From positions 32,001-96,000 of IMG/VR virus record IMGVR_UViG_3300005077_000489: 64,000 nucleotides of DNA. One strand, given 5' to 3'. A program made the position numbers and the translations under genes. The notes beneath the pieces were generated by a model, which saw only the letters and a program-made list of their open reading frames with translations, did no database searches and was not told where the DNA came from. This document shows, one piece after another, positions 4,618 to 39,659 of this stretch (position 1 is the stretch's first letter; every line of letters begins with the position of its first letter). The stretch is from a virus. Taxonomy: Duplodnaviria > Caudoviricetes.

Positions 4618-4629
4618 AGGAATATTATA

Positions 4630-9602: not shown

Positions 9603-11549
9603 ATGGGTATCTATCATTCTCGTCCGATAAGCGGCAGTGGGTCTATTCCTGTAGAAGTTTTAGGGAATGCTACAGAAGAAAATCCGGTCCTTGCACGAAA
9701 TGACCCCGCCGTATCTGCACTTGTTCTTTCTCTTGGGGCTGAGTCGGTTGCGGCTACTGAAGAGGTGGCTGGTGCGTCTCTCACAGGAGGAGCTGCTACC
9801 GTTTCTGATTCTGGAACCGGCAATACGATAGAGATTCATCCGAACGACGGCATCACGGCGAATACCAATCAGATCACCCTGAACCACCTTGCTGCTATTG
9901 CCGGAAACGTAGGATTGAGTAGCTTAAACACAGTGCTTGGTATTGGAGACCTTCTCGCTGCTCTTGGCACAATGGAAAACCACACAGAAGTGCTTTGGAA
10001 CAATATGGGCGGTGGAGTTGGGGAGTCTGCTATTAAGTCGTCTGCCAGCTTCACTTGGGACGAGGATAGTAAGCAGCTTACCATTCGCGGCAAGATCCAC
10101 TTGGAAAGCCCTATCGGAGAAACAGAAGAAACGGGAAATATCCTGGTAAACACTCTTGCTCCGATGTTGACCACCGGTGAGTCAAATATTCTTGTAGGCG
10201 GGGCTGGTGCTGCCGTCACAGAGGGCAGTCGGAACGTTGTTCTCGGTGGTGATGCCTTTGCTTCTGAAGACACGGGGTCTGACAACATCGTGCTCGGGGC
10301 TGGTGCGGCTAATCAGCAAACAGGGATTTTCGGGACTGTAGCGATAGGCACGGATGCCCTTAGCTGGAATACCGCAGCCGGATGTTTTGCTATTGGATTT
10401 GAAGCTCTCAGAGAACACACTACTGGTGCATATAGTATGGGGCTTGGCTATCAAGCCGGGAAGTATCAAACCGGGGAGGGTGTTTTAGCTATAGGCTACC
10501 AAGCACTCCTCGGTGTTGAGGGCTCCAGCACTGGATCAACCAATATAGCAATCGGCAACGGCGTCTTCAAGGGGATGACAACAGGGACGGTGAACCTCGG
10601 AATCGGTGACAATGTTGGGGAAGCCTTAACCACTTCGGAGAAAAATACGCTCATTGGCATCAACGTAATGGCGAATAGTACCTCCAGTAGTTCAGAAAAC
10701 GTAATGATTGGGAACAATATTGCAGATGTATATGGCGGAAATAGGTCTTGGAATGTTTTTGTTGGTTATGGGGCTGGACACGGCGATGCAGGCGGACTCT
10801 CAAATACGGTTGTTGGACATGGTGCGGGAGCTGGTTCAGGCGCTTTGGTTGAATGTGTTGCAATCGGAAGAGGCGCAATAAATCGAAATAGCGACAGCAC
10901 CGGAGCCGTGGCAGTTGGTGCTTATTCCTGCGAAAAGTCTGCCACTGTAGTCGGCAGAACTGCCGTAGGCACGGCTACAGGGTGTAACAACACCGGTAAC
11001 AATAACACCTTTGTTGGGTATAATTCAGGTTTAGGGGTTGAGGGGTCATCCACAGGTGGAAACAATACAACTCTTGGCTTTGAGACTCTGAAGGCACTCA
11101 CCTCGGGGGCAGGTAACTGTGTCGGCGGCTACCAGGGTATGAACGCCTTAACTACGGGCGACAGCAACACTTCGTGGGGCAGTCAGGCTGGAATCAAAGC
11201 AAACGGCGATTCTGACGGCAATATTTTTCTCGGATACATGGCCGGTCCGTCGTCTGCTGCGGCAATCGACAACGCTTTGTATATCCACAACGCTGAGGGG
11301 GCACCCACGATCTACGGCGATCTGGCCAACAAGTACGTCGGATTCGGGGGGATAGAAGACCCAGCAAGTCCGGTGGACATAAACGGTATTTTAACACTTA
11401 GGGCAACTACAGAACCAGAAGAGTCTCCTGCAACGGATAGTGTTTATTTATATCTTACTGCATCGGGTACTAGTCCAAGTAAAGACTTGTCTATATGGGC
11501 TAAATTTGAGGACGGTTCTGCCGAGATAATTAAAACTGTTACGGTATAA
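9603..11549 (+). CDS. Fibre/adhesin with Gly-rich N-x-x-x-G beta-roll repeats (YadA-head-like)
   Basis: Many (S/T)NI(A/V)(I/L)G..A-type repeats; GC-rich core. Confidence 0.7.
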   Translation: MGIYHSRPISGSGSIPVEVLGNATEENPVLARNDPAVSALVLSLGAESVAATEEVAGASLTGGAATVSDSGTGNTIEIHPNDGITANTNQITLNHLAAIAGNVGLSSLNTVLGIGDLLAALGTMENHTEVLWNNMGGGVGESAIKSSASFTWDEDSKQLTIRGKIHLESPIGETEETGNILVNTLAPMLTTGESNILVGGAGAAVTEGSRNVVLGGDAFASEDTGSDNIVLGAGAANQQTGIFGTVAIGTDALSWNTAAGCFAIGFEALREHTTGAYSMGLGYQAGKYQTGEGVLAIGYQALLGVEGSSTGSTNIAIGNGVFKGMTTGTVNLGIGDNVGEALTTSEKNTLIGINVMANSTSSSSENVMIGNNIADVYGGNRSWNVFVGYGAGHGDAGGLSNTVVGHGAGAGSGALVECVAIGRGAINRNSDSTGAVAVGAYSCEKSATVVGRTAVGTATGCNNTGNNNTFVGYNSGLGVEGSSTGGNNTTLGFETLKALTSGAGNCVGGYQGMNALTTGDSNTSWGSQAGIKANGDSDGNIFLGYMAGPSSAAAIDNALYIHNAEGAPTIYGDLANKYVGFGGIEDPASPVDINGILTLRATTEPEESPATDSVYLYLTASGTSPSKDLSIWAKFEDGSAEIIKTVTV

Positions 11550-12983: not shown

Positions 12984-13904
12984 ATGAATATACTTTATAA
13001 CTTATATAAACAATATAATTTTATGGATGCTACTATTGTTCAAGGAATGAGATCTTTGGGTCATCATGTATTTAGTGTCAATGAGGTAGCTAGTAATTAT
13101 GCAGAGCCTTATAATGGAGAGGATTATAGCCTTTATTTCCATTCTGGGCGTCTACCCTTCTCACCAAATCAAGCATCAATTCCTTCCGACTTGAAGGATG
13201 TTCCACGTATTCTTGTTTGGGGGCACGACTCAGGGATAACAAAAGAGCATCAATGGTTTCCTGATATATTAGGGTGGGATGCCTGCTTTATTCGTGATCT
13301 CCGCGAAAATTGTGGATCAAATGTTTTTCCAATTCACTACGGGATAGAAGATCGTTATTATTGTGAAACAAAAGAACTACGAAAACCACTCAGGGACAGG
13401 TCTATTGATATTTTCTTTAGAGGACAGTTATATAAGCACAGAGCCCAAATTCTTGCTGAGATCCAAAAAGAGTTTGGAAATACCTATATCCTATCAATTA
13501 ATGATAGGAGTCTTGATGACACAGATGACTTATGGACCCCGCAAATGAAAGATGGTAGAGGTATTCATCAAATTTCTTACTACCAGCAGATGGCAGATTC
13601 TAAAATAGTTCTCTCACTTTTAGGACTAGGACCTGACTGTGCGAGACATTGGGAGGCATTGGCATCTGGGGCAGTACCCCTTATTCAATTTATGCCAATT
13701 ATATATGTTAAGCCGTGGTTGAAAAATACGCAGGAGTATTTTTATTTTACTGGAATTGATGATTGTCTGTATATCATATCAGAATTACTAGAAAATCTTG
13801 ACCTGGCTCAATCTGTAGCTAATGCTGGCTTTGAATCCGGCATGCAGAATCATACAACCGCAAGTCGGGCAGAATATATCCTCGGATGTTTGGGGGTTAA
13901 ATAA
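12984..13904 (+). CDS. Glycosyltransferase (GT-B, CgeB/YkvP-like)
   Basis: IFFRG..Y.HRAQIL; C-terminal SKIVLSLLGLGPDCARHWEALASGAVPL and HTTASRAEYIL. Confidence 0.75.
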   Translation: MNILYNLYKQYNFMDATIVQGMRSLGHHVFSVNEVASNYAEPYNGEDYSLYFHSGRLPFSPNQASIPSDLKDVPRILVWGHDSGITKEHQWFPDILGWDACFIRDLRENCGSNVFPIHYGIEDRYYCETKELRKPLRDRSIDIFFRGQLYKHRAQILAEIQKEFGNTYILSINDRSLDDTDDLWTPQMKDGRGIHQISYYQQMADSKIVLSLLGLGPDCARHWEALASGAVPLIQFMPIIYVKPWLKNTQEYFYFTGIDDCLYIISELLENLDLAQSVANAGFESGMQNHTTASRAEYILGCLGVK

Positions 13905-16900
13905 TGCCTTTTATTCGGGATTCTATATGGGTTTATGAATCGGTAACAACCGATGCTGGTATTACTATTCCAATGCCAGCATATCAAGAGAACGATCTTA
14001 TCCTTGTTTTTGCTGCCTCTGATACAGGTGCAACAACATGGGGTTGTTCTGGGTTTACTCAACTCTATGCACGTGCTAACACCGTTTATACAGTGTGCTA
14101 TTACAAGATTGCAACCTCTAGTGAGAGTGACGTTGCGGTAACAGGTTCAAAAAACGAAACGTACAATGGGTGTGTTATTACTATTGGTGATGTTGATACT
14201 TCTTACCCATTTGGAAACCCGGCCGTTTATTCTGAAGCGGGTCTGACAACCGGTACTCGTTATAATATGCCCCAAATTACAACTGATAGAGATAATTGTC
14301 TAATAATATATTTTATGGCTCTTGCTGTGGTGTCCGCTCCCACCTTTATTCAGGGACCGGTTAATTATTTGATCGGAGGTGATGGTGCAGCAGAGTCTAT
14401 GGGGGTAGGGTGGGGATTTCAAAAAGCCCAGGGATCAACCGCAAGTAATGTTTATTCTGCGACCTACGCTTCGGCGGCTGGTGCTAGAGCAGTTATTGAA
14501 ATTGCTGCCCCAGCCACAGGAGCATTAGTAATTCCTTCATATGTTGCTTCCGATTCTTGTAGATTATTGAATCTTATTCATGGTACTACGGCTTGGAACG
14601 GTGATACGGCATTGGCGGCTACGGCAGACTCAAACTTTGGAACCAGTCTAGGTGGGAAAACAGCGAACGATGCAACGGTAGCTGCAGCACAAGATATAGG
14701 AATAATGTCCTTTCACGCTATGGGGGGACTTACAAACGCGAATACAGTCGGACAAATCAGTGGTGCAGAGTTGGTATTTGCTGTTGGTAACCGTCCTAAT
14801 GTAGGTACAAAAAACATTCTGTGCCACGTCAGACCTACTACTCCTGCTCACAGCCAGAGATTTGCCTCGGTTGTTAGCGGACGCGGGTTTTGGTTTGGTA
14901 TGCGTTCAAACACTACCGGAACATCGGATCATATGATTTGGCAGGTTCATGGTTCTGATGCTCCTTGGTCTCCTTCTGAACACGTTCCTATTATTATCAA
15001 TTCAGCGGCAGCGAATGCAAAAGATACTGCTGGGACACTTACTACATCCGCCATTACAGCATTCGGTTTTTGGAATAGTGGAATTTCCAACCTTACTTGT
15101 CAGATGTCCGTAGGTATGCTGTGGTTAATGGATGTAACGGTCATTGCAGGAGGAAACGCGGCTTATCCAATGACAATTCCAGACATTGCTTATATTTGTG
15201 GTGCCAAAGGTAAAGAACGGTATAGTGTAAAACAGCAGGGAGTTTCCCAGATGCTCTGTTTACAACAAATACAATTTGGTAACGGGGGTACAAATCCCAT
15301 ATACCTTAAATTAGAAAATACTGCTATCGAGTTCCCCAAGCAATATGATGCTGCTTCTAAGGTTGTTAATTATAATTCTACAGATAATATGGTAGGTATT
15401 ACTTACTACCCTGGTCCAAATGATACCATTATTCATCGTAATAGTTTGGTTTCAAGTCCTTCTAAATATTTCTGGGGACTACATTCCTCAGCGACTACTT
15501 CGGGTGTCTATGATTTTTCCGGGCTTACCTTAATTGGTGCGGGTCAAATAACACTTATTTCTGGTGTTGCCCTAGATGGCTTAGTTTTTATGGGTTGTGA
15601 CGAAGTACCGGCAGTAGGGGCTGTACTAACTAACTGCGAATTTAATGCTACCGTCGGGAGCGGTTCCCTTTCTGTTTCGTCGTCCGCGGAGATGTCTTCT
15701 ATATCTTCTTGTATTTTTTCTGATAATACATATGGGATACGCCTAACTAGTAGTTCTGCTGATACGTATTCTTTCGATAATATCCAATTTAACAATAATA
15801 CTAATGACCTTTACATAGGGGCTACAACCGGTACTGTTACGATTAATGTAGTAGGGGGAGATACGCCTACATATACTTCTGCTGGTGCTGATGTTGTAGT
15901 AAACAATTTAAAAACATTAACGTTAACTGGGTTAGTTCCTGATAGTGAAGTAAGGATTTATGGTTCTTCACAAGGAGGAACCACTAGTGGTACGCTAAGT
16001 AGTTTTAGCGAAACATTATCTTTATTTGGTGAGGGACTGGGCGATATGTCCTTCCGGCAGATATTACCATTTTCGGAAGCGGGGGAGTCTGTTCGGGTTA
16101 AGGTAAAATCCCCAGAGTTAGGAATTTTGAAGATAGACCATGCTTCTATAGGGGTTCAGGATACCGGCATTAATACTGTTTCTACTCCAGTAGAGATAAA
16201 GTGGGGCGGTAGCTCTGGTGTCACGCTGAGTGGCGGTACAATGGGTGCATCCTCTTCTTCTTATAGTACCACGTTAGATACACAAGATTCGGGGTGGGTT
16301 GGAGATAGTATAAGACAAATAGTTACATTCAGTAATGGGGGAACTCAAGTACGTGTAAGGGTCATTTCTTCTTCTTCTTATGGTACTGATATAGATCACA
16401 TGTCTATAGGAGAACAGGATACCGGTATAAATACTACGGAAACTCCTACAGAATTAAAGTTCGGTGGTAGCTCGGGTGTCAGTTTAGATGCTGGCTCCTC
16501 TTCTGAGTGGAGTGATTGGACTGATTTTCCCTCATCCGGCAGTACAGCTTATGTAATCATAATCGACTATGCGTCATCAAACGGTGGAATTGCTTATACT
16601 AGTGGGGCGAGTGTTAGTAGATACTATAAGGATGCTACTGCCACATGGGACCAGGCATCCGTTACAGGCTTCACAGGACCAGGAACTTATACATATACTT
16701 TTTATTCAATTGAAGTTAGGAGTGTGACCGGTTCTGCGGTGGAATCTTGGAGCGACTGGACTACATTTAATTCTGTTGAGGGTAACCAAATAATAATTTT
16801 TGATATGGCTGCTACCAACTCTGGTATTGCTTATGCTACCGGGTCAAGTGTTGATGCTTATTTTAAAGATGAGACTGATAGCTGGAACCAGTCTAGTGTC

Positions 16901-17182: not shown

Positions 17183-17228
17183 TCCCTAGTTCTCAGAGAC
17201 GGACAGTTCTATTCCTAGAAGAACTTAC

Positions 17229-17296
17229 AGTCTGGGGCTACAGACTGGCTACGCGAGTAGCGGAAGCCCCCACCTTTAGGTGCGGGGAGTAGTCAC
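17229..17296 (+). mobile_element. Miniature non-autonomous IS200/IS605-family element, copy 1
   Basis: Preceded by TTAC; hairpin CAGTCTG-gggcta-CAGACTG; ends GAAGCCCCCACCTTTAGGTGCGGGGAGTAGTCAC, typical of IS605/TnpB-type right ends; second copy at 39590. Confidence 0.7.
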
Positions 17297-17301
17297 TTAG
17301 A

Positions 17302-23352: not shown

Positions 23353-26300
23353 ATGGACGGGATTAAGTTAATATATCCGAGCATTTCCGATTACTATACT
23401 CGTAACCAAATAGACACATTATTTTCTACTATATCAGGTGGCACAGGAGAGGTGACCTATGTAATGCTGGTCACCACTTCTGGAGATATTGTTTCACAGA
23501 TTCCGTCCCTGTCTGGTTATGCTACCCAGAGTTGGGTTTCCACAAACTATATCGATAGCACCGAATTAACTACCACTTCTGGAGATATAATAAATTATAT
23601 AGACCAAGAAATTTCTACTATCTCGGGCGGCGGCGATGTAACTTATGAGATGTTACTCACCACCAGCGGGGATATTATAGATTATATAGACGAGCAAATA
23701 ACCGCTGTCTCTGGAAGCAGCGGTATCTCTGAAGAACAACTAGTAACTACTTCCGGTGATATTGTTGCACAGATTCCTTCTTTAACGGGATATGCAACGC
23801 AAACCTGGGTATCTGATAATTATATAGACAGTATAGAATTAACTACTTCCTCTGGGGATATAGTTGCACAGATACCCTCTTTAGTTAATTATATAACACA
23901 AGAGCAGTTAACTACTACGAGTGGAGATATAGTATTACAAATTCCTACCGATTATATTACAAATGAGCAATTAACTACTACCTCTGGGGATATAATCATA
24001 TATGTAGACCAACAAATTTCTACGATAAGTGGAGGTAGTGGGGATGTAACATTAGAAATGTTAACCACAACTAGTGGTGATATTGTGGACCAAATTCCTT
24101 CCATTACAGGTTATGCTACACAGAGTTGGGTTTCTGAAAACTATATAGACAATAATGAAATGACCACAATTAGTGGAGATGTTATCGCTTATATAGACCA
24201 GGAAATTTCCACGGTGAGCGGTGGTAGCGGTATTACGCAAGAGCAATTAACTACTACTTCGGGGGACATAGTAGATCAGATTCCTAGTTTGTCGGGCTAT
24301 GCTACACAGAATTGGGTAACTACTGTAAGTGGTGACATTATTTCTCAGGTACCAACTACTGCTTCAGAAATAAGTGCAAGACTGTCCGGTTACTATGTTT
24401 ATTCTCCAGACGGGTCTGCTAATTTACAGGTGGACAGCATTACGCCTGTAATGACCAGCAATACGGCCCCGTCCCCTTTTGTAGTTAGTGTAGATAGTTA
24501 CTATGATGCTAATTACGTGGCTTTTAAAGCGTTCAATCAGGATGGTGGCTCCACATTTTGGAATTCTCAGCACGTACTTCCCCATTGGATAAAAGTTGAC
24601 TTGGGGTCAGCAAGGAAAATAACGAAGTATAGATGGCGTGCTGTTAACCGCTCATTTCATGAGAGTAGATCACCGTCAACATGGACTATTGAGGGTAGTA
24701 ATGATAACCTTGCTTGGGATGGGCTCGATTCTCGATCTGGTGTAGGAACTCCTGGTATGAATCAATGGACTTCCTATTATACCTTTACCAACAATTCCTT
24801 TTATAGGTACTATAGGATGTACATAACAGCCAACACTCTGATGGTTGATGGCTACATCGAATTAGGTGAATTACATTTTGTGGAAGCTCACCTTGTTCTT
24901 ATTTCTACTTTTAACTATCTGGAGGTAGATACAGATACTAGTGTTTCGGGAGCCCTGATTACTTTAGATACTAATGTGTATGAACACATCATTACTACCA
25001 GCGGTGTCTTAGCAGGGCAAATTCCGTCCCTCGAAACCTATGTTACAGAAGAAAAATTAACAACTGTTAGTGGAGATATTGTTTCACAGATTCCGTCTCT
25101 AACTGGTTATGCGACCGAGAGTTATGTCTCCGAAAACTATATAGACACTAGTGAGATGACCACAATTAGTGGAGATCTACAGTTGCAGATACCCTCTTTA
25201 TCTGGTTATGCGACTGAGATCTATGTCTCCGAAAACTATATAGACACTAGTGAGATGACCACAATTAGTGGAGATCTTATCTCTTATATCGATACAGAGA
25301 TTTCCACAATATCTGGTGGGGGAGATGTAACTACAGATATGCTTACCACTACATCAGGTGACATAGTCTCCTATATAGATGCTCAGTTGTTAACAGTTAG
25401 CGGTGGTGGGTTGGCGTGTGCTGCCTGTACTTCTAGCGGATTAGTAGTTGATAATGCAATAATTGCACCTTCAGGCATATTTACTGAGGGAATACAAGTA
25501 GGGAGTGGTACAGTTAGAATTACGGGAGATGGGATCACTTTTCCAGATAATAGCATAATTACTGTGGCTCCTCCTCAGTTTGACCTATTTGATACTGGAT
25601 TGACTTTGAATCTTTTTTCTGACGCTTCTGGTAGTGAGATAGAAAATTTAGGTTACTTCGGTTCTGATGCAAATTTCGAAAAGGTAGGAACTTGGACTAA
25701 TGGGACTCAGGGGGATGCACCAGTGTGGGTTAATAGTGGTGGGTCTTCTTCCGTAGTTCGTCTTATGGCACACCACACCAACACAAATCCCGGAGCATCT
25801 TTTTCTTCAGCTAATCTATCTGATGGGTCGGCTTCTTTCGCCATAACGGACACTAATTTAAATTTGCAGTCTTTGTTTGGTATGGATACGCAGCCCTCTT
25901 CTTTGGGAAAGCGTTTTAAGATAGATGCGGGTTCTAATGCTTCTAGTAGGAACTGGATCACGGGATACATTGGCAATGTTGCTAAGGCTGGAGACACATA
26001 TACACTAGATATATATAATGGTCCCTATTCTGCTACAAGGAGTTGGCATAAGTATTCACTAGGGTCGTGGAATGGTTCAGACATTTTATGGTGGATCTAC
26101 CCAGCATTCTTTGATTATGACCATGATAATTTAAGAGGTTACGCTACTTCTTGTTGGTTTTATGAGTATGATGCCACTGCAGACTGGTCCAATTTAATTA
26201 CTAAGATGTATGCAGTGTTAACTGGTGTCGAGGACGTTGGTATAGGATTCTGTTTTCAACATACCAATGTCGATTATACGATTCAGTGGAATTCCTCTTA

Positions 26301-26625
26301 TGTAACTAATGGTCTAGATGTAATAGCTATTTCCAATGCTATTAAAACTGGTAGGTGGTTCCATTTTGCACTTATTCAGAATAGATGGCAAGCATCTAGA
26401 ACTTTGATGATAAATGGTGAAGTAATCGGAGTAGGTACAGCAAGGACATCATCGTGCTGTATGGGATTGTTTGCATTTGCAGGTCAGGGTAATGGAGGAG
26501 GTGGACTTCCCTCTGGCTCCAAAATCGCCTTTCCTAGATACTGGAAAGGAGACACTAGCCCAGCACAGATCCGAGGCGTCTATGAGTATGAACGAAATTT
26601 GATGGGGCTCAGACCTAATCACTAA
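23353..26625 (+). CDS. Fibre/adhesin: TTSG-repeat stalk, F5/8C (discoidin) domain, C-terminal LamG/ConA-like domain
   Basis: Many TTSGDI/TISG repeats; discoidin W..Q...PHWIKVDLG...SPSTWTIEGSND...W...YRYYRMYI at about 24430-24890; WFHFALI...LMING near the C-terminus. Confidence 0.75.
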   Translation: MDGIKLIYPSISDYYTRNQIDTLFSTISGGTGEVTYVMLVTTSGDIVSQIPSLSGYATQSWVSTNYIDSTELTTTSGDIINYIDQEISTISGGGDVTYEMLLTTSGDIIDYIDEQITAVSGSSGISEEQLVTTSGDIVAQIPSLTGYATQTWVSDNYIDSIELTTSSGDIVAQIPSLVNYITQEQLTTTSGDIVLQIPTDYITNEQLTTTSGDIIIYVDQQISTISGGSGDVTLEMLTTTSGDIVDQIPSITGYATQSWVSENYIDNNEMTTISGDVIAYIDQEISTVSGGSGITQEQLTTTSGDIVDQIPSLSGYATQNWVTTVSGDIISQVPTTASEISARLSGYYVYSPDGSANLQVDSITPVMTSNTAPSPFVVSVDSYYDANYVAFKAFNQDGGSTFWNSQHVLPHWIKVDLGSARKITKYRWRAVNRSFHESRSPSTWTIEGSNDNLAWDGLDSRSGVGTPGMNQWTSYYTFTNNSFYRYYRMYITANTLMVDGYIELGELHFVEAHLVLISTFNYLEVDTDTSVSGALITLDTNVYEHIITTSGVLAGQIPSLETYVTEEKLTTVSGDIVSQIPSLTGYATESYVSENYIDTSEMTTISGDLQLQIPSLSGYATEIYVSENYIDTSEMTTISGDLISYIDTEISTISGGGDVTTDMLTTTSGDIVSYIDAQLLTVSGGGLACAACTSSGLVVDNAIIAPSGIFTEGIQVGSGTVRITGDGITFPDNSIITVAPPQFDLFDTGLTLNLFSDASGSEIENLGYFGSDANFEKVGTWTNGTQGDAPVWVNSGGSSSVVRLMAHHTNTNPGASFSSANLSDGSASFAITDTNLNLQSLFGMDTQPSSLGKRFKIDAGSNASSRNWITGYIGNVAKAGDTYTLDIYNGPYSATRSWHKYSLGSWNGSDILWWIYPAFFDYDHDNLRGYATSCWFYEYDATADWSNLITKMYAVLTGVEDVGIGFCFQHTNVDYTIQWNSSYVTNGLDVIAISNAIKTGRWFHFALIQNRWQASRTLMINGEVIGVGTARTSSCCMGLFAFAGQGNGGGGLPSGSKIAFPRYWKGDTSPAQIRGVYEYERNLMGLRPNH
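25123..25277 (+). repeat. Exact 56-bp direct repeat (25123..25178 and 25222..25277, period 99 bp)
   Basis: TATGTCTCCGAAAACTATATAGACACTAGTGAGATGACCACAATTAGTGGAGATCT occurs twice. Confidence 0.9.
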
Positions 26626-28210: not shown

Positions 28211-29281
28211 ATGGATCTTGAAAAGAAACGTAGACTTTTTCAAGCGACCGCGGAAGACACACCCGAAGGTAGGAAAGCTTTCAGGGCGTTTGCTGCCTCT
28301 CTGACTGGCCCGATTCTGAAGGGACTTGAAGAGCAATCTTATATGCGAAGTCTTTTTACAGTCGAGAGGTTGGGACCGGGTGCCCAGCCCACATACCCTA
28401 TCGCTGATGAATTTGATAGCCCAATTTGGATTTTACCCCATATTGGGTATGTAGCACAAGACTACATCGAATACATAGCGGAAGAGGTATCAATTCCTAC
28501 CTTTACTGTGCAAGCCGCCAAAGATTGGTTGCTTAGATATGCACGTGAAGGACGTACTGACGTTGTTCAAAGAGCTCAACAGGCTGTTTCTAAGTCGTTG
28601 GCATCTTATGAGGAAGAAGCAGGTTGGAGAACTATCATACCTGCGGCTACTTCTGCATTTAATGGTGCAGGGGTTCTTCCGCCTAGGCCAGCTCCTATTT
28701 ATGAAATGGCTGCGGGCGACCCAGCTTCGGGTTATCTTTCTAAAGAGCTCTTAAATAGAATGATTGTCGGTATGCAACGCTTAGGCCGTAATCTACAGGA
28801 GCTTTGGATTTCTCCTGAAGATATGGCTGATATTCGCGAGTACACTGATATTGATGTTGATCAGGTTACTCGCAGGGAGATTTTCCAAGCTGCTGGTTTA
28901 GGTAGCATTTGGGGAGTTCGCTTTAGAGTGGTGGATGCATTAGGTGTCCGCGGAAAATATAATATCAATGACAAAACATCTGAGTATGGTCCTTTTAAGG
29001 GCAACGCCGGTTCTAATGCTTATAATGATTATACTATCAGTAATGGTAACATTGTTGATATAAATGGTAATCTTTCGACAGCAGGCGAGACTCAGATTTA
29101 TGGATTTGATAATTCTGATATTTCTTTGGTTATGCCTATTAAGCAGGAGTACCAAGCATTTGATGACCCAACCCTACATCGTAAACAGAAACAAGGTTTC
29201 TATGGATGGATGGAGTTTGGTATGGCTTGTCTAGATGCAAGGTTCCTTTGCATGGCAGTAATCGACAGATATACTCCATAA
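28211..29281 (+). CDS. Major capsid protein (HK97 fold, probable)
   Basis: 356 aa after scaffold/decoration; LFTVERLGPGAQPTYPI and QKQGFYGWMEFGMACLD segments. Confidence 0.75.
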   Translation: MDLEKKRRLFQATAEDTPEGRKAFRAFAASLTGPILKGLEEQSYMRSLFTVERLGPGAQPTYPIADEFDSPIWILPHIGYVAQDYIEYIAEEVSIPTFTVQAAKDWLLRYAREGRTDVVQRAQQAVSKSLASYEEEAGWRTIIPAATSAFNGAGVLPPRPAPIYEMAAGDPASGYLSKELLNRMIVGMQRLGRNLQELWISPEDMADIREYTDIDVDQVTRREIFQAAGLGSIWGVRFRVVDALGVRGKYNINDKTSEYGPFKGNAGSNAYNDYTISNGNIVDINGNLSTAGETQIYGFDNSDISLVMPIKQEYQAFDDPTLHRKQKQGFYGWMEFGMACLDARFLCMAVIDRYTP

Positions 29282-29563: not shown

Positions 29564-29590
29564 AGGGGGACATATTTGTCCCCCTTTTTG
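29564..29590 (+). terminator. Rho-independent terminator after the capsid genes
   Basis: AGGGGGAC-atattt-GTCCCCCT followed by a T run. Confidence 0.8.
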
Positions 29591-29656
29591 TTTAACCTGT
29601 AATAACTTTCCTTCTAACTTCTTGTAGGAACTGTAACCGTTAGGAGGATTTTTATT

Positions 29657-30656: not shown

Positions 30657-30967
30657 TATTTGATTCCGGACAGATTATATCCACGCTGGCAGTATTAATG
30701 TTTTGGGTGCTAATCGCGGGCGGCGGCTACCTGTATTCTAAGCTAAAGTATTATGAGTATATAGCTAATACTAAACAAATAAGAATTGAGGAGTTAAAAA
30801 AGGAGTTAGCAGTATCGGAGCAAAAACTATTAAATTGTAATGCACAAGTTGATCTATCTAAAAAAAACTTAAAAGCAATTGAAGCCTATTATAAAAAGAA
30901 AGTTCCCTTCGTGATAACAGGGAAAGAACCGAAAGACGAGGAGTTATTTAACATTGAACCTAAGTAA
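30638..30967 (+). CDS. Probable inner-membrane spanin
   Basis: N-terminal TM helix plus coiled coil; overlaps the lipoprotein gene. Confidence 0.6.
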   Translation: MEAPKVIFDSGQIISTLAVLMFWVLIAGGGYLYSKLKYYEYIANTKQIRIEELKKELAVSEQKLLNCNAQVDLSKKNLKAIEAYYKKKVPFVITGKEPKDEELFNIEPK

Positions 30968-31358
30968 TATTATAATATTATTGGTATGTCTAGTTGTCTT
31001 TACCGGGTGCAAAAGTAATAATGGTTTTGTGAGGAATGAACCAATACCATTACAGCCACAACCTAAACGGGTCGCAGTACATAAAAATGAAGATAAATCG
31101 AAATACCCGAATACTCATTGGATAGAGAAGGACCGGGGTCCTATAAAAATAAAACCCGATGAAAAGGGCGAGGGTCTTTATTGGCGAGCCCCGAAAGAAG
31201 GTGCTATTGCTTGGCCTTATGATTCGTGGGAAGCTTTCTTAAAATCTTATCAGAACTATTTAGATTGGGCAGATAATACAGAAACATTAATTAAAAACTA
31301 TAATGATGCTGTGGAGGGGAAAACTAAAGAAGCGGAAAAACCCTGGTACAGACCATGA
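30954..31358 (+). CDS. Probable outer-membrane spanin lipoprotein
   Basis: Signal peptide with lipobox VFTG-C; Pro-rich mature part. Confidence 0.65.
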   Translation: MNLSNIIILLVCLVVFTGCKSNNGFVRNEPIPLQPQPKRVAVHKNEDKSKYPNTHWIEKDRGPIKIKPDEKGEGLYWRAPKEGAIAWPYDSWEAFLKSYQNYLDWADNTETLIKNYNDAVEGKTKEAEKPWYRP

Positions 31359-31792
31359 GCGAGGAACGTACTACTAAATTATTACATGAGTTAGAAGACC
31401 TTATAGGACTACTAGCACAACAGACAGATAGTCGTGCTACCAATCTCCAAGCTAAGTGGGAAGAAAAGTGGGATAAGTTAGAAAATTCTGTTGATAGTAT
31501 CGCGGATGAAGTATATAAACTAAAGAAGAAAAAATGGGATTGGTTTAAATTTATTGTCATAGGAATTCTGTTAATAGTTGGTATCACGGCATTTGAAACG
31601 TGGCGGGATGGAATGTATAAATTAAGTAGCTTCGACTCTGAGGTTAAGGCACTCAATTCTAAATTTGATGCCTTAAAGGAACGAATTGTTTTTAGAGGCG
31701 ACTTAATCGACAAGATTAGGGAATTGGAGAAGTCAAGGACAAAGGAGATAAAAGAGTTAATAGAGGAGTATCACAAGAAGAAGCCGAAATGA
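31355..31792 (+). CDS. Membrane protein with coiled coils
   Basis: Central TM helix WFKFIVIGILLIVGITAF; ATGA overlaps on both sides. Confidence 0.6.
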   Translation: MSEERTTKLLHELEDLIGLLAQQTDSRATNLQAKWEEKWDKLENSVDSIADEVYKLKKKKWDWFKFIVIGILLIVGITAFETWRDGMYKLSSFDSEVKALNSKFDALKERIVFRGDLIDKIRELEKSRTKEIKELIEEYHKKKPK

Positions 31793-32175
31793 AGATATTA
31801 ATTGTTGAAAATGATGTTATTGTGGGTAAGATATGGAGAAAGTGGCTATCTAGGTTACATGAAGTTAGAAGTGCTGAATCAGCAGCTACCGCTCTAGAGG
31901 CTATAGATGAGGAATTACCTGACTTGGTTATTTTAGATTTACGTCTTAATGGACCAAACCCCGCGTCATCTGGTCTTAGAGTATTTAATTATTTACGAGA
32001 GAAGGCAAATAACATTCCCGTCATATTTATTACAGGGTTAGAATATAATGTAGAATTATATCAAGAAGCGAAAAAGATTAGTGAGAATGATTCTGGTGCT
32101 GGAATAAACACGGAACTTGTTCGGAAGCCTATTTCTATACATAAGTTAACGGAATTAGTTGATAAGGTAGCGTAG
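31789..32175 (+). CDS. Single-domain response regulator (CheY-like receiver)
   Basis: MKILIVEND, LVILDLRL (phospho-Asp), FITG, VRKP. Confidence 0.9.
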   Translation: MKILIVENDVIVGKIWRKWLSRLHEVRSAESAATALEAIDEELPDLVILDLRLNGPNPASSGLRVFNYLREKANNIPVIFITGLEYNVELYQEAKKISENDSGAGINTELVRKPISIHKLTELVDKVA

Positions 32176-35036
32176 TGGACCCACTAACATATATAAATGT
32201 GTTAATTATAGACGACGAAGAAGAAATAGTATCTTTATTTTCTAAGATGCTGTCAAGGTCTACTTTTCCCTTTTTTTCTGTTACTACTTGTTACGATTTG
32301 GAGTATCTTAACTGTAATATTAACAGTAGTGTTGACGTGGTCTTGCTAGATTTGAATCTAAAATCTTCGCGGGGACTAGAAACTTTAAAACGTTTTTTAT
32401 TAATGTGCCCAAAAACCCCAGTTGTCGTTATTACAGGAAGTACAGAAGTAGGTTTAGCCTACGAGTGTTTTCAATTAGGTGTTAGTGACTTCATAATAAA
32501 ACCTAACGTAAGCGATATTCTTTTACAAAAGGTTTGTGTATATTCTATTATTCGTCATAAGGCTTTAGCAGAACTAGAACAAACGCAAGCTAAATTATCT
32601 GGATTCATGGATGCAGCTCCGATAGGGTTAGGTACGGCAGCATACAGAAGAATTATATCTGTAAATTCTTTTCTGTGTAAAATGTTGGGGTATAGCGAGG
32701 AAGAGTTGGTAGGACAAGATGCCAGAATCATATATTCTGATGAGGAGGAATATCAAAGAGTAGGGAATCTAAAGTATAATAATTTTAGAGAGCAGAAAAA
32801 AGTAGCAATAGAGTGCAAGTGGAAAAAGAAAACAGGAGAAATAATAGACATCTATTTGTGTTCAAATTTCATCAATAGTGAGGATTCCTCCGCTAACGTT
32901 ATTTTTACTGCGATGGATATTACAGAGCTTAACGAAGCAAAGAAACAGATAGAGAAGGCGAGGGATAAAGCACAGAATTATTTGAATATTGCTGGAACTA
33001 TGATATTAGCTCTCAATAACAAAGCTGAGGTAGTGCTAATTAATAAAAAGGGATGTGAGATAGTCGGACTACCACAAGAAGAGGTTTTAGGAAAGAATTG
33101 GATAAATAATTTTGTGCCTTTGGAGTCTCGTGAAGAAACCTGGTTAATTTTTAATACCTTAATGTTTTCTAAAGAGGTAATAGAAGACCATGCCCATATA
33201 AACTGGATAGAGTGCAAAGGCGGCGGTAGAAGACTTATAAAGTGGCAAAATACAATAGGTAAGACTAATGGATACATCCTCAGCTCTGGGGAGGACATAA
33301 CTGATGCTCATTATATGCAAGAAGAACTACGTAAGAGCGAAGCAAAATATAGAAGTGTGGTGGAAACTGCGGGCGAAGGAATAATTATAACACAGAATGA
33401 GGTTGTTAAATTAATAAATAAAAGTATTACAGACTTATTTGGATATACTGAAGAGGATATGGTTGGTCATAGTATGTATGAATTCTTACACCCAGATTCT
33501 GTTGATGAAGTCAAGTCTAATCATTTAAAGAGAATGGCGGGGGAGATATTAGATAGTAAGAATTATGTCATAAAGGGTTTTGATAAAAGTAGAAATATTA
33601 AATATGTGGATTACCGAGTAACAACTGTAGATTGGGGAGGTAGCCCTGCCTCCTTGGGTTTTGTTAGTGATATAACCGAGAAGTTGACATTGGAACAGAG
33701 GCAGCATCTTATTATTGATATACTGCGTGTATTAAATGAGCCTTATTCAGGCAAACAAACTGTTAAAACTATTTTGGAGAAAATACGGGAATTTACCGGA
33801 GCCGATGCTGTGGCTATACGTTTAAAAGATGGTCATGATTATCCTTATTTTGTCTACAAAGGGTTTTCTAAAGAATTTATAGATGCAGAAAACTATTTGT
33901 GTAAGTATGGAGCAGACTCGGGGTGCCTAGTTACAGAACCTAGTGGTAAGCCTGTATTAGAGTGTATGTGTGGTTGTGTAATAAGGGGGTATGTGGATAA
34001 GTCCTTGCCTTTTTTTACTGAAAATGGTAGTTTCTGGATCAATGGTTCTACTTCATTACGTCAGATAACACCAAAGGAGCTGATGGGTAACACTAGGAAT
34101 ACGTGCAATACGGAGGGCTACGAATCTATAGCTATAATTCCCTTAAAAGCCGGTGAAGAGATTATTGGTACATTACAGATTAATGATAAGAGGGAATATT
34201 ACTTTAGTAAAGAATTAATAGAGTTTATGGAGCGGCTAGCTGCTAGTATTGGTGTGGCTGTAAAGAGAGTATGGACTGAAGAAGCTTTAACAAGAATAGA
34301 AATTGCTAAGACACAAGATTTACTAGAGGCGTCACGCTTTTTGAATGCAGGAATAGCACATGAACTTAGGACTCCTTTGCAAGCTATATTAAATTCTTTT
34401 GAATACATAAAAACCGTGTCTTCGGAGGAATGTGCCGATCAAGAAAGCCAGTGTAATTGCAAAGCAGAAGTTTCTGAAATAGCTTCAGAGGGTATAGATA
34501 GAACTGATTATGCTATACAAGTGCTTGACTCATTAGCAGAATATTCAAAAATTGCCTCTAGTAGTGAAAAACATTTAATTAACCTTTTTATAGAATTGAA
34601 GACAATATTGACAACTTTAAGGTATACTGACCAGTTTAAGTCATTTACTGACGATACACTTAAATTAGAAGGTAAGCCTATCGGTTGTTCGATTAGAATG
34701 AATCGTGTTGATTTTCAGCAATTAATTGTCAATTTGTGTAAGAACGCCAGAGAGGCAATACAACACGATGACCCTGTCATTGGTATCACATTATACACAG
34801 ATAATAATGATGCCATAATAAGAGTTAGGGATAATGGTAGAGGAATATCACATAAGATAGGTAATAAGATATTTGAGCCATTCTTTTCTACCAAGGATAA
34901 TCCCGAATCACAAAGTCAGGGGCTCGGTCTGGCTATCGTAAAGAATATAGTTACCGCTTATGGAGGAACTGTAGATTATAATAGTCGCCCGGGCGACACG
35001 GAGTTTATAGTTAGATTTCCGTGTGATAAAGAATAG
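32175..35036 (+). CDS. Hybrid sensor histidine kinase (REC-PAS-PAS-PAS-GAF-HisKA-HATPase)
   Basis: REC LIIDDEEE..LLDLNL..IIKP; PAS segments; H box IAHELRTPL; N box NLCKNAREA; G1 DNGRGI; F box IFEPFFSTK; G2 GLGLAIV. Confidence 0.92.
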   Translation: MDPLTYINVLIIDDEEEIVSLFSKMLSRSTFPFFSVTTCYDLEYLNCNINSSVDVVLLDLNLKSSRGLETLKRFLLMCPKTPVVVITGSTEVGLAYECFQLGVSDFIIKPNVSDILLQKVCVYSIIRHKALAELEQTQAKLSGFMDAAPIGLGTAAYRRIISVNSFLCKMLGYSEEELVGQDARIIYSDEEEYQRVGNLKYNNFREQKKVAIECKWKKKTGEIIDIYLCSNFINSEDSSANVIFTAMDITELNEAKKQIEKARDKAQNYLNIAGTMILALNNKAEVVLINKKGCEIVGLPQEEVLGKNWINNFVPLESREETWLIFNTLMFSKEVIEDHAHINWIECKGGGRRLIKWQNTIGKTNGYILSSGEDITDAHYMQEELRKSEAKYRSVVETAGEGIIITQNEVVKLINKSITDLFGYTEEDMVGHSMYEFLHPDSVDEVKSNHLKRMAGEILDSKNYVIKGFDKSRNIKYVDYRVTTVDWGGSPASLGFVSDITEKLTLEQRQHLIIDILRVLNEPYSGKQTVKTILEKIREFTGADAVAIRLKDGHDYPYFVYKGFSKEFIDAENYLCKYGADSGCLVTEPSGKPVLECMCGCVIRGYVDKSLPFFTENGSFWINGSTSLRQITPKELMGNTRNTCNTEGYESIAIIPLKAGEEIIGTLQINDKREYYFSKELIEFMERLAASIGVAVKRVWTEEALTRIEIAKTQDLLEASRFLNAGIAHELRTPLQAILNSFEYIKTVSSEECADQESQCNCKAEVSEIASEGIDRTDYAIQVLDSLAEYSKIASSSEKHLINLFIELKTILTTLRYTDQFKSFTDDTLKLEGKPIGCSIRMNRVDFQQLIVNLCKNAREAIQHDDPVIGITLYTDNNDAIIRVRDNGRGISHKIGNKIFEPFFSTKDNPESQSQGLGLAIVKNIVTAYGGTVDYNSRPGDTEFIVRFPCDKE

Positions 35037-35053: not shown

Positions 35054-35659
35054 ATGGAGTGTAAAATAAGAAATATTACAAATGGCTACGGCTGGGTCTT
35101 GAAGCACCAAGTAGGACCTAATGAGAGCTTGGATTTAAGAAAGATTTTTGCTGGTTTCTGCCAACCTAAGGTAAGTTCCAGAGAGGATTTAACAAAACTT
35201 AAAGCTGCAGAGAAACGTGGTAGTAAGATTCCATTTAAAGCGGCGTGGTCCCCAGACCAGTTTGATGCATTCGTTGATTGGGTGCAGAATGAGGTTGCTA
35301 CGGATAGGCGTAAATGGGTATTCGAGTTTTCTGATATTGATAACGGGGAGGAGCCGGTTCAAAAGGTAAAGGCTACTAGAGCACCCGTCGATTCTACTAA
35401 GATTAGGAAATCCGAAAACAAAAAATCTACATCGGGGACTAGAGCAGTGAGGCGTAAAATCTCTAAGGATGAATATACGGCTAAGCAAATAGCTTGGTTT
35501 GAATATAACGACCAAAATAAGAAGGTTATATCTGAGTGTAGTGATGTACGCAAATTGAAAATGGCTCTTAAGTTAGCCAGAAATTTAGCGGGTCAAGAGC
35601 GTGTCAGAATATTAATAGAGGAAAGAATAGTAGATTTAGGGACAGAAGGAATTAGTTAA
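35054..35659 (+). CDS. Hypothetical protein (possible head-associated protein)
   Basis: AGGAGG RBS, 201 aa. Confidence 0.55.
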   Translation: MECKIRNITNGYGWVLKHQVGPNESLDLRKIFAGFCQPKVSSREDLTKLKAAEKRGSKIPFKAAWSPDQFDAFVDWVQNEVATDRRKWVFEFSDIDNGEEPVQKVKATRAPVDSTKIRKSENKKSTSGTRAVRRKISKDEYTAKQIAWFEYNDQNKKVISECSDVRKLKMALKLARNLAGQERVRILIEERIVDLGTEGIS

Positions 35660-37795: not shown

Positions 37796-39526
37796 ATGGC
37801 TAAACGAAATCGTATTCTTTACGCTTCCCAGGCTGTGCATGCTAATGGTCATATCCTTTATCGTGTGCAGACTTTGGGAAGTAATACGACCTTTACCTCT
37901 GAAGACGTATTTGAACTTGGACACCTTGATAGGGTTGATGTTGTTGACGATGTCCCCGCCGTAGCAGTGGCAATCGATACCAACGACTTCGGTGCACCTG
38001 AAACTATGGCAACACTAGCTGGTCTGAACCCGTCACGTATGACTGGTTCCCCTAGTTCTAGTGGGTCTTATTTACGTACAGATATTTCTTGTACCGGTTC
38101 CGGAGTTAGATACTATCATGGTGTGGCTCTCTCTCATTTTAGTGATGCTTATACCAAGATTTGGGCTCCCGTCCAAAACGAGGCTTCTTTGGGCACTCTA
38201 GATGATGACGTTCAAATGACATTATTTATGGATAAGGTTTATGTTAACTCCATGACTCTTACGTATAATGTTGGAGCCACTGCCACAGAGAATTACGCGG
38301 GTGAAACCGATAATAAGATGTGGTTGGTCAACGGCGGGAAATTTGTATCCCAGGAAGAATGGGATATTTTATCACCGTCCAACAGTCAAGAGTTGTATTT
38401 AGGTATACCCAATTCTGCTAGTATCCCAGCATTGAGTAATTGTAAGACTGCTTTCTTATGCTTTACTGATACTGGCGAAGAAGGTATTATGGTTAAAGCT
38501 TCAACAGATAAGTATGGTACTGTATACCCAGTTCGTACTGCCGCCGCAAGTGGTGTATTCGGTTATACCTCGGCTACACAGACCCTAACTTTACCTACTA
38601 ATGCTGCTACATTGTGGCCTTATGCATCCAAGGGGTATAAGATTGTGGCTGTTTATGCTGCTAGTCAGTACGCTGCTTTGAACGGTAATACTGCTGCTTC
38701 TGATCCTGCAAAGGATTCGAAAAGAGTATATGCTAAGTATTTTGAGTTAGTATCCTCAACAGATGCTCCCGATGCCCCTGCAAACTCTCTTCCAGAGGAT
38801 GTTGGTGCTGTAAGGCAGGGTCAAGTTGAAGTATATCTAGTTGACCCAGACTTGCTGTCTGGAAAGACTAATGCCGATTGGTCTATGTTACTTCGTATGC
38901 AGTCCGTTACTATTACTGCTAATCCGACAAGAACGCCATTGAATGAGTTGGGGCATTTACGTCCTTATGCTCGTCCGATGAATTTCCCTGTTGAAATTAC
39001 CACTAATACTACAGCGACTGCTTCCGACCTTGAGTTATGGGCGACATTTGCCGGTTATACCCCCGCTGATTATGACGCTGGTGGGTCCGGAACTGATATC
39101 GCCTTGACTAATCTAATGTCTAAAAATAATCTTATTCTTATAATTAAGATTTTCCAACAGACAGATGATGAGGCCGGTGGAAGTGGTATGGATAGAAAAG
39201 CTATGCTTCCTACCATGGCTGGTAAAGAGTATTATGATTGGGACGGTGCTGGTACATACCCGTCTTATAATCCGGCTAGTGCTGGAATGGTTGGTTCATG
39301 CGTTGAACCACCGAGGGAACGACCCCTTAAGACTGTTATAGTCCCTGGTTTGAAGATTACTGCCGAGAACTTCCAAAACGCAGCCGGAGGCGGCGGAGGC
39401 GGAGGTGCTGGTGCTACTCAGGAATTTAATTTCCGTTCGACCAACGAACTATATGTAGTAAAGGGTGATGTTGATATTCAGGACGTTAATTGTGTAGAGG
39501 TTAATGCTTCTGCAGACTTGTTCTAA
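37796..39526 (+). CDS. Major tail (tube) protein
   Basis: AGGAGG RBS; RVQTLG..TFTSEDVFELG and RMQSVTITAN..R..LNELG tube-like segments; followed by a strong hairpin and tail chaperones. Confidence 0.7.
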   Translation: MAKRNRILYASQAVHANGHILYRVQTLGSNTTFTSEDVFELGHLDRVDVVDDVPAVAVAIDTNDFGAPETMATLAGLNPSRMTGSPSSSGSYLRTDISCTGSGVRYYHGVALSHFSDAYTKIWAPVQNEASLGTLDDDVQMTLFMDKVYVNSMTLTYNVGATATENYAGETDNKMWLVNGGKFVSQEEWDILSPSNSQELYLGIPNSASIPALSNCKTAFLCFTDTGEEGIMVKASTDKYGTVYPVRTAAASGVFGYTSATQTLTLPTNAATLWPYASKGYKIVAVYAASQYAALNGNTAASDPAKDSKRVYAKYFELVSSTDAPDAPANSLPEDVGAVRQGQVEVYLVDPDLLSGKTNADWSMLLRMQSVTITANPTRTPLNELGHLRPYARPMNFPVEITTNTTATASDLELWATFAGYTPADYDAGGSGTDIALTNLMSKNNLILIIKIFQQTDDEAGGSGMDRKAMLPTMAGKEYYDWDGAGTYPSYNPASAGMVGSCVEPPRERPLKTVIVPGLKITAENFQNAAGGGGGGGAGATQEFNFRSTNELYVVKGDVDIQDVNCVEVNASADLF

Positions 39527-39538
39527 GTCTTGACTTAT

Positions 39539-39578
39539 TATACTAGGCTGACTGCACAAAAGTGGTCAGCCTAGTATA
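39539..39578. terminator. Perfect 14-bp inverted repeat after the major tail gene
   Basis: TATACTAGGCTGAC-12 nt-GTCAGCCTAGTATA. Confidence 0.7.
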
Positions 39579-39589
39579 TCTTGTATTAC

Positions 39590-39659
39590 AGTCTGGGGCT
39601 ACAGACTGGCTACGGCAACATAGCAGAAGCCCCCGCCTTTAGGCGTGGGGAGTAGTCAC
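39590..39659 (+). mobile_element. Miniature non-autonomous IS200/IS605-family element, copy 2
   Basis: TTAC then AGTCTGGGGCTACAGACTGGCTACG...GAAGCCCCCGCCTTTAGGCGTGGGGAGTAGTCAC; compensatory stem changes relative to copy 1. Confidence 0.7.

Follow-up and report, generated by a model that had tools for sequence, protein, structure and literature searches.

Lysis timing sets the burst size and the fitness of a phage. To our knowledge, the only well-understood case in which a lytic phage adjusts lysis to outside information is the lysis inhibition of T-even phages and of ICP1, which is kinase-free. Here, we analyzed a 64,000-nt stretch of DNA (termed the window; bases 32001-96000 of the 211,229-bp linear IMG/VR virus record IMGVR_UViG_3300005077_000489, completeness estimate 86%) from an uncultured freshwater phage of 211 kb, in which the genes of a 145-aa membrane protein (termed MP145), a stand-alone receiver and a soluble histidine kinase are chained to lysis genes. 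Kinase and receiver very probably constitute an active two-component module maintained by the phage, and a clade of 200-550-kb freshwater phages keeps this apparently catalytically intact pair, together with the private membrane protein, beside the lysis genes.

In T4, lysis inhibition involves the holin T and the antiholins RI and RIII (PMC11413866, PMC8385771, PMC6832632), and lysis inhibition likewise occurs in the Vibrio phage ICP1 (PMC7182436). In these phages, a phage-encoded sensing device shifts the time of lysis through membrane or periplasmic contacts with the holin and without a kinase or receiver, whereas the signal path that we propose for the present trio is phosphorylation, which is undescribed for lysis control. 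MP145 has both a periplasmic and a cytoplasmic domain, i.e. what RI and RIII of T4 supply jointly; nevertheless, searches of Pfam, PHROGs and ESM Atlas revealed neither an antiholin similarity of MP145 nor homology to RI, RIII or T. Among bacterial systems, LytSR adjoins the holin/antiholin-like LrgAB/CidAB genes in staphylococci and Bacillus and is considered to link the state of the cell (membrane potential) to the access of murein hydrolases (PMC2996381). There, a LytTR DNA-binding regulator (LytR) controls the transcription of lrgAB, and the sensor LytS spans the membrane several times, whereas no LytTR domain was found in the phage record, the phage kinase is soluble and PAS/GAF-based, and its output must be post-translational. 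The sequence relationship between LytSR and the phage trio is limited to the transmitter and receiver folds.

HisKA two-component pairs with single-domain receivers (CheY, Spo0F, DivK, CpdR) share with the phage pair the transmitter boxes, a (beta-alpha)5-type receiver as recognized by Pfam, and the lack of an output domain. Compared to these, the trio is virus-encoded, its receiver has a Glu-Asn pair and two insertions, a private membrane protein and lysis genes invariably accompany the pair, and siblings have exchanged the sensor head. Taken singly, kinase and receiver are unremarkable representatives of the HisKA/HATPase_c and receiver families, except that the acidic pocket of the receiver is atypical. 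The Clostridioides difficile phage phiCDHM1 reportedly encodes no response regulator and has no link to lysis, and its kinase AgrC (HPK10) is said to be of the membrane type and to lie in the accessory region. This phage carries agrB, agrD, and the kinase gene agrC, which was taken to indicate a phage role in signalling (PMC3901668). The present locus differs by its full kinase-receiver pair and private membrane protein, which are conserved in the clade and situated inside the late region. We found no description of a phage two-component system tied to lysis genes; the searchable literature is incomplete, which makes this weak evidence of novelty, and the rarity that an initial annotation of the window had claimed for intact sensor kinases in phage structural operons holds for that searchable literature only. 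PHROGs already contains phage kinase and receiver families without an assigned function.

The kinase, the receiver and MP145

The transmitter core of the kinase (Table 1) retains the motifs required of the family. No variation was seen in the H-box A-H-E-L-R-T-P, which contains His729, among 9 orthologs, or in the ATP-binding N, G1, F, and G2 boxes (NLCxN, DNGxG, FxPxFSTK, and QGLGL, respectively) among 7-9 orthologs, although the transmitter cores are only 44-62% identical. The match to HATPase_c (PF02518) reaches 75.9 bits for a cut-off of 26.4, and the match to HisKA is just below its cut-off (25.0 against 26.9 bits; 29.6-30.2 bits for the orthologs). The H-box contains the H-E-x-x-T sequence, which we take to be the phosphatase motif of HisKA proteins, suggesting that the kinase is probably bifunctional and also acts as a phosphatase. 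Between the two helices of the DHp domain (34380-34470, aa ~736-765), we observed a loop with 3-5 cysteines, the length of which varies among orthologs and which is nearly absent in the relative L007. This loop may be a second metal or redox site.

The first such site would be located in the GAF-fold domain that precedes the transmitter. Its AlphaFold model has a pLDDT of 86.6 and its top Foldseek matches are GAF structures; three of its four cysteines are invariant and one is nearly invariant among 22 homologs, cellular ones included, making this domain a candidate metal, Fe-S, or thiol redox sensor. In Hik2/Chloroplast Sensor Kinase (CSK), the GAF domain binds a redox-active Fe-S cluster (PMC6949291). 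Hik2/CSK and the phage kinase are both soluble histidine kinases with conserved cysteines in a GAF domain, and Hik2/CSK senses the redox state; however, the cysteine pattern here is a different one (C-x20-C-x-C-x44-C) and the similarity is limited to the GAF fold. The same four-cysteine variant, 42-58% identical, is present in many cellular PAS kinases, e.g. one labelled Dehalococcoidales, and looks like an undescribed, widespread sensor sub-family. For the three PAS domains, inspection revealed no cofactor signature. The N-terminal receiver of the kinase has the canonical residues, indicating that one input may be phosphorylation by another kinase, possibly one of the host.

The stand-alone receiver contains neither an output domain nor a hydrophobic segment. 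Its D50, T82, and K113-P114 are invariant in 7 out of 7 orthologs at an identity of 46-63%, as is an acidic pair consisting of Glu7-Asn8 where CheY has Asp12-Asp13, and clade-specific insertions are found after beta3 and before beta5. Owing to the Glu-Asn pair, the protein appears to be an atypical receiver. DivK, Spo0F, and CheY-type proteins are among the solved structures that its sequence matches best. A metagenome scan with the receiver profile retrieved three close relatives only; the matches of approximately 30% identity were ordinary cellular regulators sharing VEND or LDLRLNGP words, and they are uninformative on the rarity of the Glu-Asn pair. A single kinase and three receiver domains were counted in the whole record, and an output domain is absent from all three open reading frames (ORFs) that contain a receiver. 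The third receiver (148 aa; G000:C1:11138-11584, minus strand; L015:1396-1842) is located 20 kb before the start of the window among small minus-strand genes. It is canonical (Asp-Asp, Asp, Ser, Lys; PF00072, 92 bits) and is absent from two relatives that are 96-97% complete.

MP145 consists of a conserved N-terminal helix region of ~60 aa, a membrane helix, and a C-terminal coiled coil of ~60 aa. A run of four lysines before the membrane helix predicts, by the positive-inside rule, that the head is cytoplasmic and the coiled coil periplasmic. This topology is i-spanin-like, with an added conserved cytoplasmic head, and MP145 also gives a weak Rz-like PHROG match (E 0.007). The family is small: a set of 5.8 billion proteins yielded 11 clusters, and an exhaustive profile search of 1.84 billion proteins yielded 33 representatives. 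Every member examined, including three distant ones, is encoded directly 5' of the receiver and the kinase, so the conserved unit is a trio rather than a pair, and the MP145 and receiver genes usually share a start/stop overlap. ESM Atlas searches with MP145 and with the 201-aa protein encoded after the kinase returned only unnamed viral or bacterial clusters and helical look-alikes. A complex prediction for the receiver and MP145 residues 1-62 yielded a score of 0.22, the mark being 0.32.

The initial annotation had described a complete two-component system, with a hybrid kinase and intact phosphorylation residues, that follows the lysis genes without room for a promoter or terminator. Its coordinates and gene order were confirmed on the ORFs, as were the junctions, namely an ATGA at each of positions 31355 and 31789 and, at 32175, a TAGTG in which the two genes have one G in common; the pair is indeed chained to the lysis genes, between capsid and tail genes. 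The kinase is soluble, as proposed, given that no hydrophobic segment was found, and neither protein has a DNA-binding output. The intactness of the residues was borne out for the kinase boxes and for D50/T82/K113 of the receiver, but not for its metal-binding acidic pair, which is Glu7-Asn8. The term hybrid kinase had to be abandoned: the receiver domain is N-terminal, and a search for an HPt domain (PF01627) in the 211-kb record, which is ~86% complete, was negative at E up to 0.1. Judging from its architecture, the protein is a receiver-regulated kinase beside a single-domain receiver, not a classical hybrid kinase.

Conservation of the trio and swapping of sensor heads

In order to examine the context of the trio in related phages, we reached relatives through a search with the capsid protein and through exact look-up of the best kinase homologs, which gave contigs of 7-545 kb. 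The MP145-receiver-kinase genes occupy the equivalent place in 12 out of 12 related contexts examined (the window, L006/L011, L007, L008, L009, L013, L014/L019, L023, L003/L080, L077, L079, and a 74-kb contig), with capsid identities down to 59%. The gene order of the siblings is capsid, small ORF, holin candidate, endolysin, spanins, MP145 homolog, receiver, kinase, and four or five virion-type genes. Identity to the window is 59-81% for the capsid protein, 43-64% for the receiver, 42-49% for the best segment of the kinase, and 28-48% for MP145. The nearest relative is L009 according to the receiver, the kinase core (pairing 98/99), and capsid identity (80%), the capsid tree leaving this node unresolved, and all three trees show L007 as the most divergent row. 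In L007, the NlpC/P60 endolysin is replaced by a protein that reads as lytic-transglycosylase-like and two LAGLIDADG homing endonucleases are inserted, yet the order of the holin-like protein, spanins, MP145 homolog, receiver, and kinase is kept. Taken together, the trio appears to be vertically inherited and under purifying selection. The siblings come from lake and freshwater metagenomes, as indicated by the runs carrying L006, and from wetland sediment in the case of L013, by record name only.

The nearest homologs of the pair are genes of other huge phages, with 31-54% identity over the listed alignments. Codon usage of the kinase gene is the most typical among the window genes (distance 0.120), and this phage-like usage suggests amelioration to the phage. 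Other searches were less productive: a single-sequence kinase scan of viral contigs gave no match, and a tblastn search of GenBank phage records with the kinase and the receiver revealed only weak similarity (24-40% identity) to transmitters or receivers, without recovering any relative of the module. Many of these GenBank matches were on short unannotated or evidently bacterial records.

The sensor head differs between siblings. The REC-PAS-PAS-PAS-GAF head of this phage is shared by P0002 and P0011, and P0003, P0004, and P0006 have one PAS fewer. In P0014-P0017, the head is a 260-aa domain flanked by two membrane helices, the model of which (AlphaFold pLDDT 79.7) has double-Cache matches in Foldseek, including PctA, KinD, and DctB (E ~1e-8 to 1e-7); a sequence search with this periplasmic domain against solved structures gave no match. 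The L077 head comprises two membrane helices and one PAS, and that of L007 one PAS only. A GAF-like domain before the transmitter is common to all siblings except L007 and L077. We regard the swapped sensor heads as the signature of a decision circuit tuned to different cues. The sensing of cytoplasmic redox or metabolic state that was first proposed is thus plausible for this phage, from the GAF cysteines, but it is not general, because siblings have periplasmic double-Cache domains.

Possible outputs of the module

Our preferred reading, which we hold tentatively and consider somewhat short of probable, is that the module is a late phosphorelay at the inner membrane whose output is lysis timing. 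One late transcript, from ~29600 to ~39580, would cover the lysis genes and the trio. The kinase would integrate inputs from its N-terminal receiver, three PAS domains, and cysteine-bearing GAF domain, autophosphorylate on His729, and set the phosphorylation of receiver Asp50 by phosphotransfer. Since the receiver has no DNA-binding part, it probably acts by protein contact, and the record offers no transcriptional output, in that neither HPt nor LytTR was found and all three receivers lack an output domain. The most likely target of the receiver would be the cytoplasmic N-terminal region of MP145, the proposed output partner or anchor of the receiver, or the adjacent holin or spanins at the inner membrane, and lysis would come earlier or later depending on the condition of the cell or on its surroundings. 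A more specific version, which we consider unlikely, is a phosphorylation-driven lysis clock or lysis-inhibition switch whose sensor head is exchanged among siblings to suit the cue. Here, the cue would be cytoplasmic redox or metal, perceived through the four-cysteine GAF, plus the phospho-input; in siblings, it would be an extracellular or periplasmic small molecule perceived through the double-Cache domain, e.g. amino acids or polyamines from lysed neighbours, in which case phages would communicate with one another or receive messages from hosts. Once phosphorylated, the receiver would bind the MP145 head, and the periplasmic coiled coil would hold back or release the holin or spanin step.

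Several observations weigh against lysis timing by such a relay. Asn at the position of CheY Asp13 is rare and could mean altered or weak phosphorylation. Start/stop overlaps are common across this tightly packed genome (e.g. at 35659) and are not specific for functional coupling; moreover, in L077 (a 545-kb contig) a homing endonuclease gene is interposed between MP145 and the receiver, so that close coupling at translation is dispensable. The gap between capsid and tail genes collects homing endonucleases and TnpB, and the position of the trio may therefore reflect insertion tolerance instead of function. Finally, in relatives and in other huge phages, kinases whose core is equally similar (52-53% identical) are encoded next to a potassium channel and at a distance from lysis genes. 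This second kinase of the same family (contexts of L072:4138-8412, on a 545-kb IMG/VR contig, P0008, and P0019, on a 647-kb contig) is one or two genes away from an RCK-domain potassium channel, among small ORFs, archease, and HNH genes, and is found in larger relatives and huge phages; the record of the present phage is devoid of an RCK-domain potassium channel.

The insertion-prone gap raises the possibility, which we judge doubtful, that linkage is a matter of history: a sensing module landed there once, and its real function, exerted via protein contacts, is unrelated to lysis and could lie e.g. in adapting assembly, DNA packaging, or the expression of late genes to cell state. The occupation of the equivalent gap by LAGLIDADG homing endonucleases and TnpB in relatives, the generality of gene overlaps, the five virion-type genes that follow in the putative unit, and the equally related kinases beside a potassium channel are all in line with this. 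On the other hand, the order spanins-MP145-receiver-kinase was never rearranged in the contexts seen, even where the endolysin type changed, and MP145 has a spanin-like topology and a weak Rz-like match. A different target is envisaged if the module plugs into host phosphorelays and reshapes late host physiology (motility, envelope stress, metabolism) rather than lysis, which we consider somewhat unlikely. Single-domain receivers such as DivK or CheY-type sinks act as phosphate sinks, and the phage kinase or receiver could similarly serve as kinase, phosphatase, or phosphate sink for host regulators; alternatively, a host kinase could phosphorylate the N-terminal receiver of the phage kinase. 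In favour of such cross-talk, the N-terminal receiver implies an upstream phosphodonor, and the record holds one kinase only; the idea is also consistent with the lack of a DNA-binding output on receiver and kinase and with the related kinases that adjoin a potassium channel. The canonical 148-aa receiver, which this phage alone carries, suggests a wider network as well. Nevertheless, siblings without the N-terminal receiver keep the receiver and MP145, indicating a self-contained conserved circuit, and a target within the phage is suggested by MP145, which is private to phages and tied to the pair.

It is extremely improbable that the pair is a recent passenger or consists of decaying host genes without a phage role. 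Histidine kinases on public "phage" records are often host contamination, and many of the GenBank tblastn matches look so. However, the synteny comparison found the pair present and syntenic in every relative, with invariant catalytic motifs, so the refutation that had been envisaged (a pair absent from relatives and near-identical to a host locus) fails; the best non-self kinase match is 49% identical and belongs to a sibling phage, no near-identical cellular locus was found, and codon usage is phage-like. If the output of the module is lysis, phosphorelays join the routes by which viruses sense their environment, in the form of a compact and portable signal-to-lysis device; if it is the host, a virus brings its own two-component wiring to rewire the cell. 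In either case, the parts of the trio, which are small, soluble, or single-pass, lend themselves to tests in E. coli that do not require the phage in culture.

Lysis genes, putative transcription signals and surrounding genome

Table 1 Features of the lysis-trio block and its flanking signals (positions are those of the window).
Feature	Coordinates	Strand	Description
Terminator-like hairpin + T run	29564..29585	+	9 pairs, 6 G-C; closes capsid-gene unit, block begins after it
Conserved motif TAACTTTCCTTCT	29603..29615	+	~45 nt 5' of holin-candidate start
Holin candidate, 133 aa	29657..30058	+	Charged N-terminus, three hydrophobic segments
Endolysin, 198 aa	30060..30656	+	Divergent NlpC/P60 cysteine peptidase; signal/signal-anchor segment aa 1-25
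i-spanin candidate, 109 aa	30638..30967	+	N-terminal membrane helix, then coiled coil
o-spanin candidate, 134-aa lipoprotein	30954..31358	+	Signal peptide, lipobox-like Cys
MP145, 145-aa membrane protein	31355..31792	+	One central membrane helix, aa 61-84
Stand-alone receiver (REC), 128 aa	31789..32175	+	PF00072, 52.7 bits (cut-off 30.2)
Soluble histidine kinase, 953 aa	32175..35036	+	REC-PAS-PAS-PAS-GAF-HisKA-HATPase_c; no membrane segment
Kinase N-terminal receiver, aa 9-119	32193..32534	+	PF00072, 60.2 bits; canonical D13, D14, D59, T87, K109
Three PAS domains, ~aa 145-503	32607..33683	+	Pfam PAS, PAS_9, PAS_3, PAS_4, PAS_8
GAF-fold domain	33687..34274	+	Conserved Cys at kinase residues 576, 597, 599, 644
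Transmitter core	34326..35024	+	DHp H-box HELRTP (His729), Cys-rich loop, catalytic ATP-binding domain
Strong terminator-like hairpin	39539..39578	+	17 pairs; directly 3' of 576-aa ORF 37796-39526

The lysis cassette to which the trio had been assigned was substantiated for the endolysin, through an ortholog profile only, and for the spanins, whereas the holin stands by position and topology only. The endolysin alone had no Pfam match; a six-ortholog profile matches solved NlpC/P60 structures (E 1.3e-6), PF00877 matches 5 of the 6 orthologs (best E 7.7e-6), and D71-C72-S73-G74 and H141 are invariant, providing a Cys72/His141 dyad. The i-spanin candidate has a weak match to an Rz-like spanin PHROG (phrog_739, E 0.007), and there is a weak T4-spanin Pfam hint among the spanin proteins. 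This protein and its orthologs have a conserved C-terminal tail, and its gene overlaps the o-spanin gene by 14 nt, as is usual for overlapped spanin pairs. The lipobox-like Cys is present in all seven o-spanin orthologs (VFTGC, ILTGC, VGGC, LVSC, VAGC, IGGC, and FNGC), as is the i-/o-spanin topology (7/7), and the o-spanin orthologs have a proline-rich start and a conserved C-terminal W-x-x-P(W). Such an overlapped spanin pair points to a diderm host. The 133-aa protein, 27-43% identical to its relatives, matches no Pfam or PHROGs family and has no charged C-terminal tail; it is a holin candidate from its position and membrane topology.

The hairpin and T run that precede the block are found at the equivalent site in L009, L013, and L014, with different stem sequences. 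Directly 3' of this terminator, TAACTTTCCTTCT aligns in four relatives and could serve the block as a promoter or regulatory site. A general promoter role across the phage was ruled out, because the window contains 15 matches (up to 2 mismatches) for 15.9 expected. The gene following the kinase starts at 35054, after a 17-nt gap, with an AGGAGG ribosome-binding site, and such sites indicate that the host uses Shine-Dalgarno sequences. The 39539-39578 hairpin is the probable end of the unit that would contain the lysis genes, the trio, and the five virion-type genes located 3' of the kinase. Among public sequencing runs, none was listed as carrying the block of the window; for the sibling L006, ten DNA runs (lake and freshwater metagenomes) were listed, with no RNA run among them.

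In relatives, the interval from the capsid gene to the trio is a hotspot of selfish DNA: we observed there an IS605-type TnpB and LAGLIDADG homing endonucleases, some of which have a Myb/GcrA-like DNA-binding head. These selfish elements are located at L007:11374-12561 and 13237-14244, L077:4005-4823, L079:2174-2992, L080:1716-2516 and 3916-4869, and L011:4027-5148.

Every long ORF in the window is on the plus strand. The major capsid gene (28211-29281) was identified by a match to phrog_2522 (E 2.4e-9), its product is 24% identical to the major head protein of Bacillus phage G, and a small ORF separates it from the 29564-29585 hairpin. When PHROGs was applied to the neighbouring virion-type genes, 23353-26625 gave a tail-protein match and the others gave none; the label of virion module for the downstream genes leans on the upstream capsid match. 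An ORF of more than 7,000 codons (42903-63998) extends beyond the end of the window, with a third-position G+C of 0.50 in its last 11 kb and 0.31 in its first 10 kb. An intergenic element of ~70 nt is present in two copies (17228-17297 and 39588-39659) that are 87% identical, each 3' of a large structural ORF. One change looks compensatory in a G+C-rich hairpin (CCCCCACC...GGTGCGGGG vs CCCCCGCC...GGCGTGGGG). Neither the element nor any other part of the window matched Rfam at gathering thresholds, and the element may be a structured RNA or a terminator/processing element. Among the long genes, a 648-aa ORF at 9603-11549 has the most deviant codon usage, and its G+C content is 50%, compared to ~39% for the remaining window.

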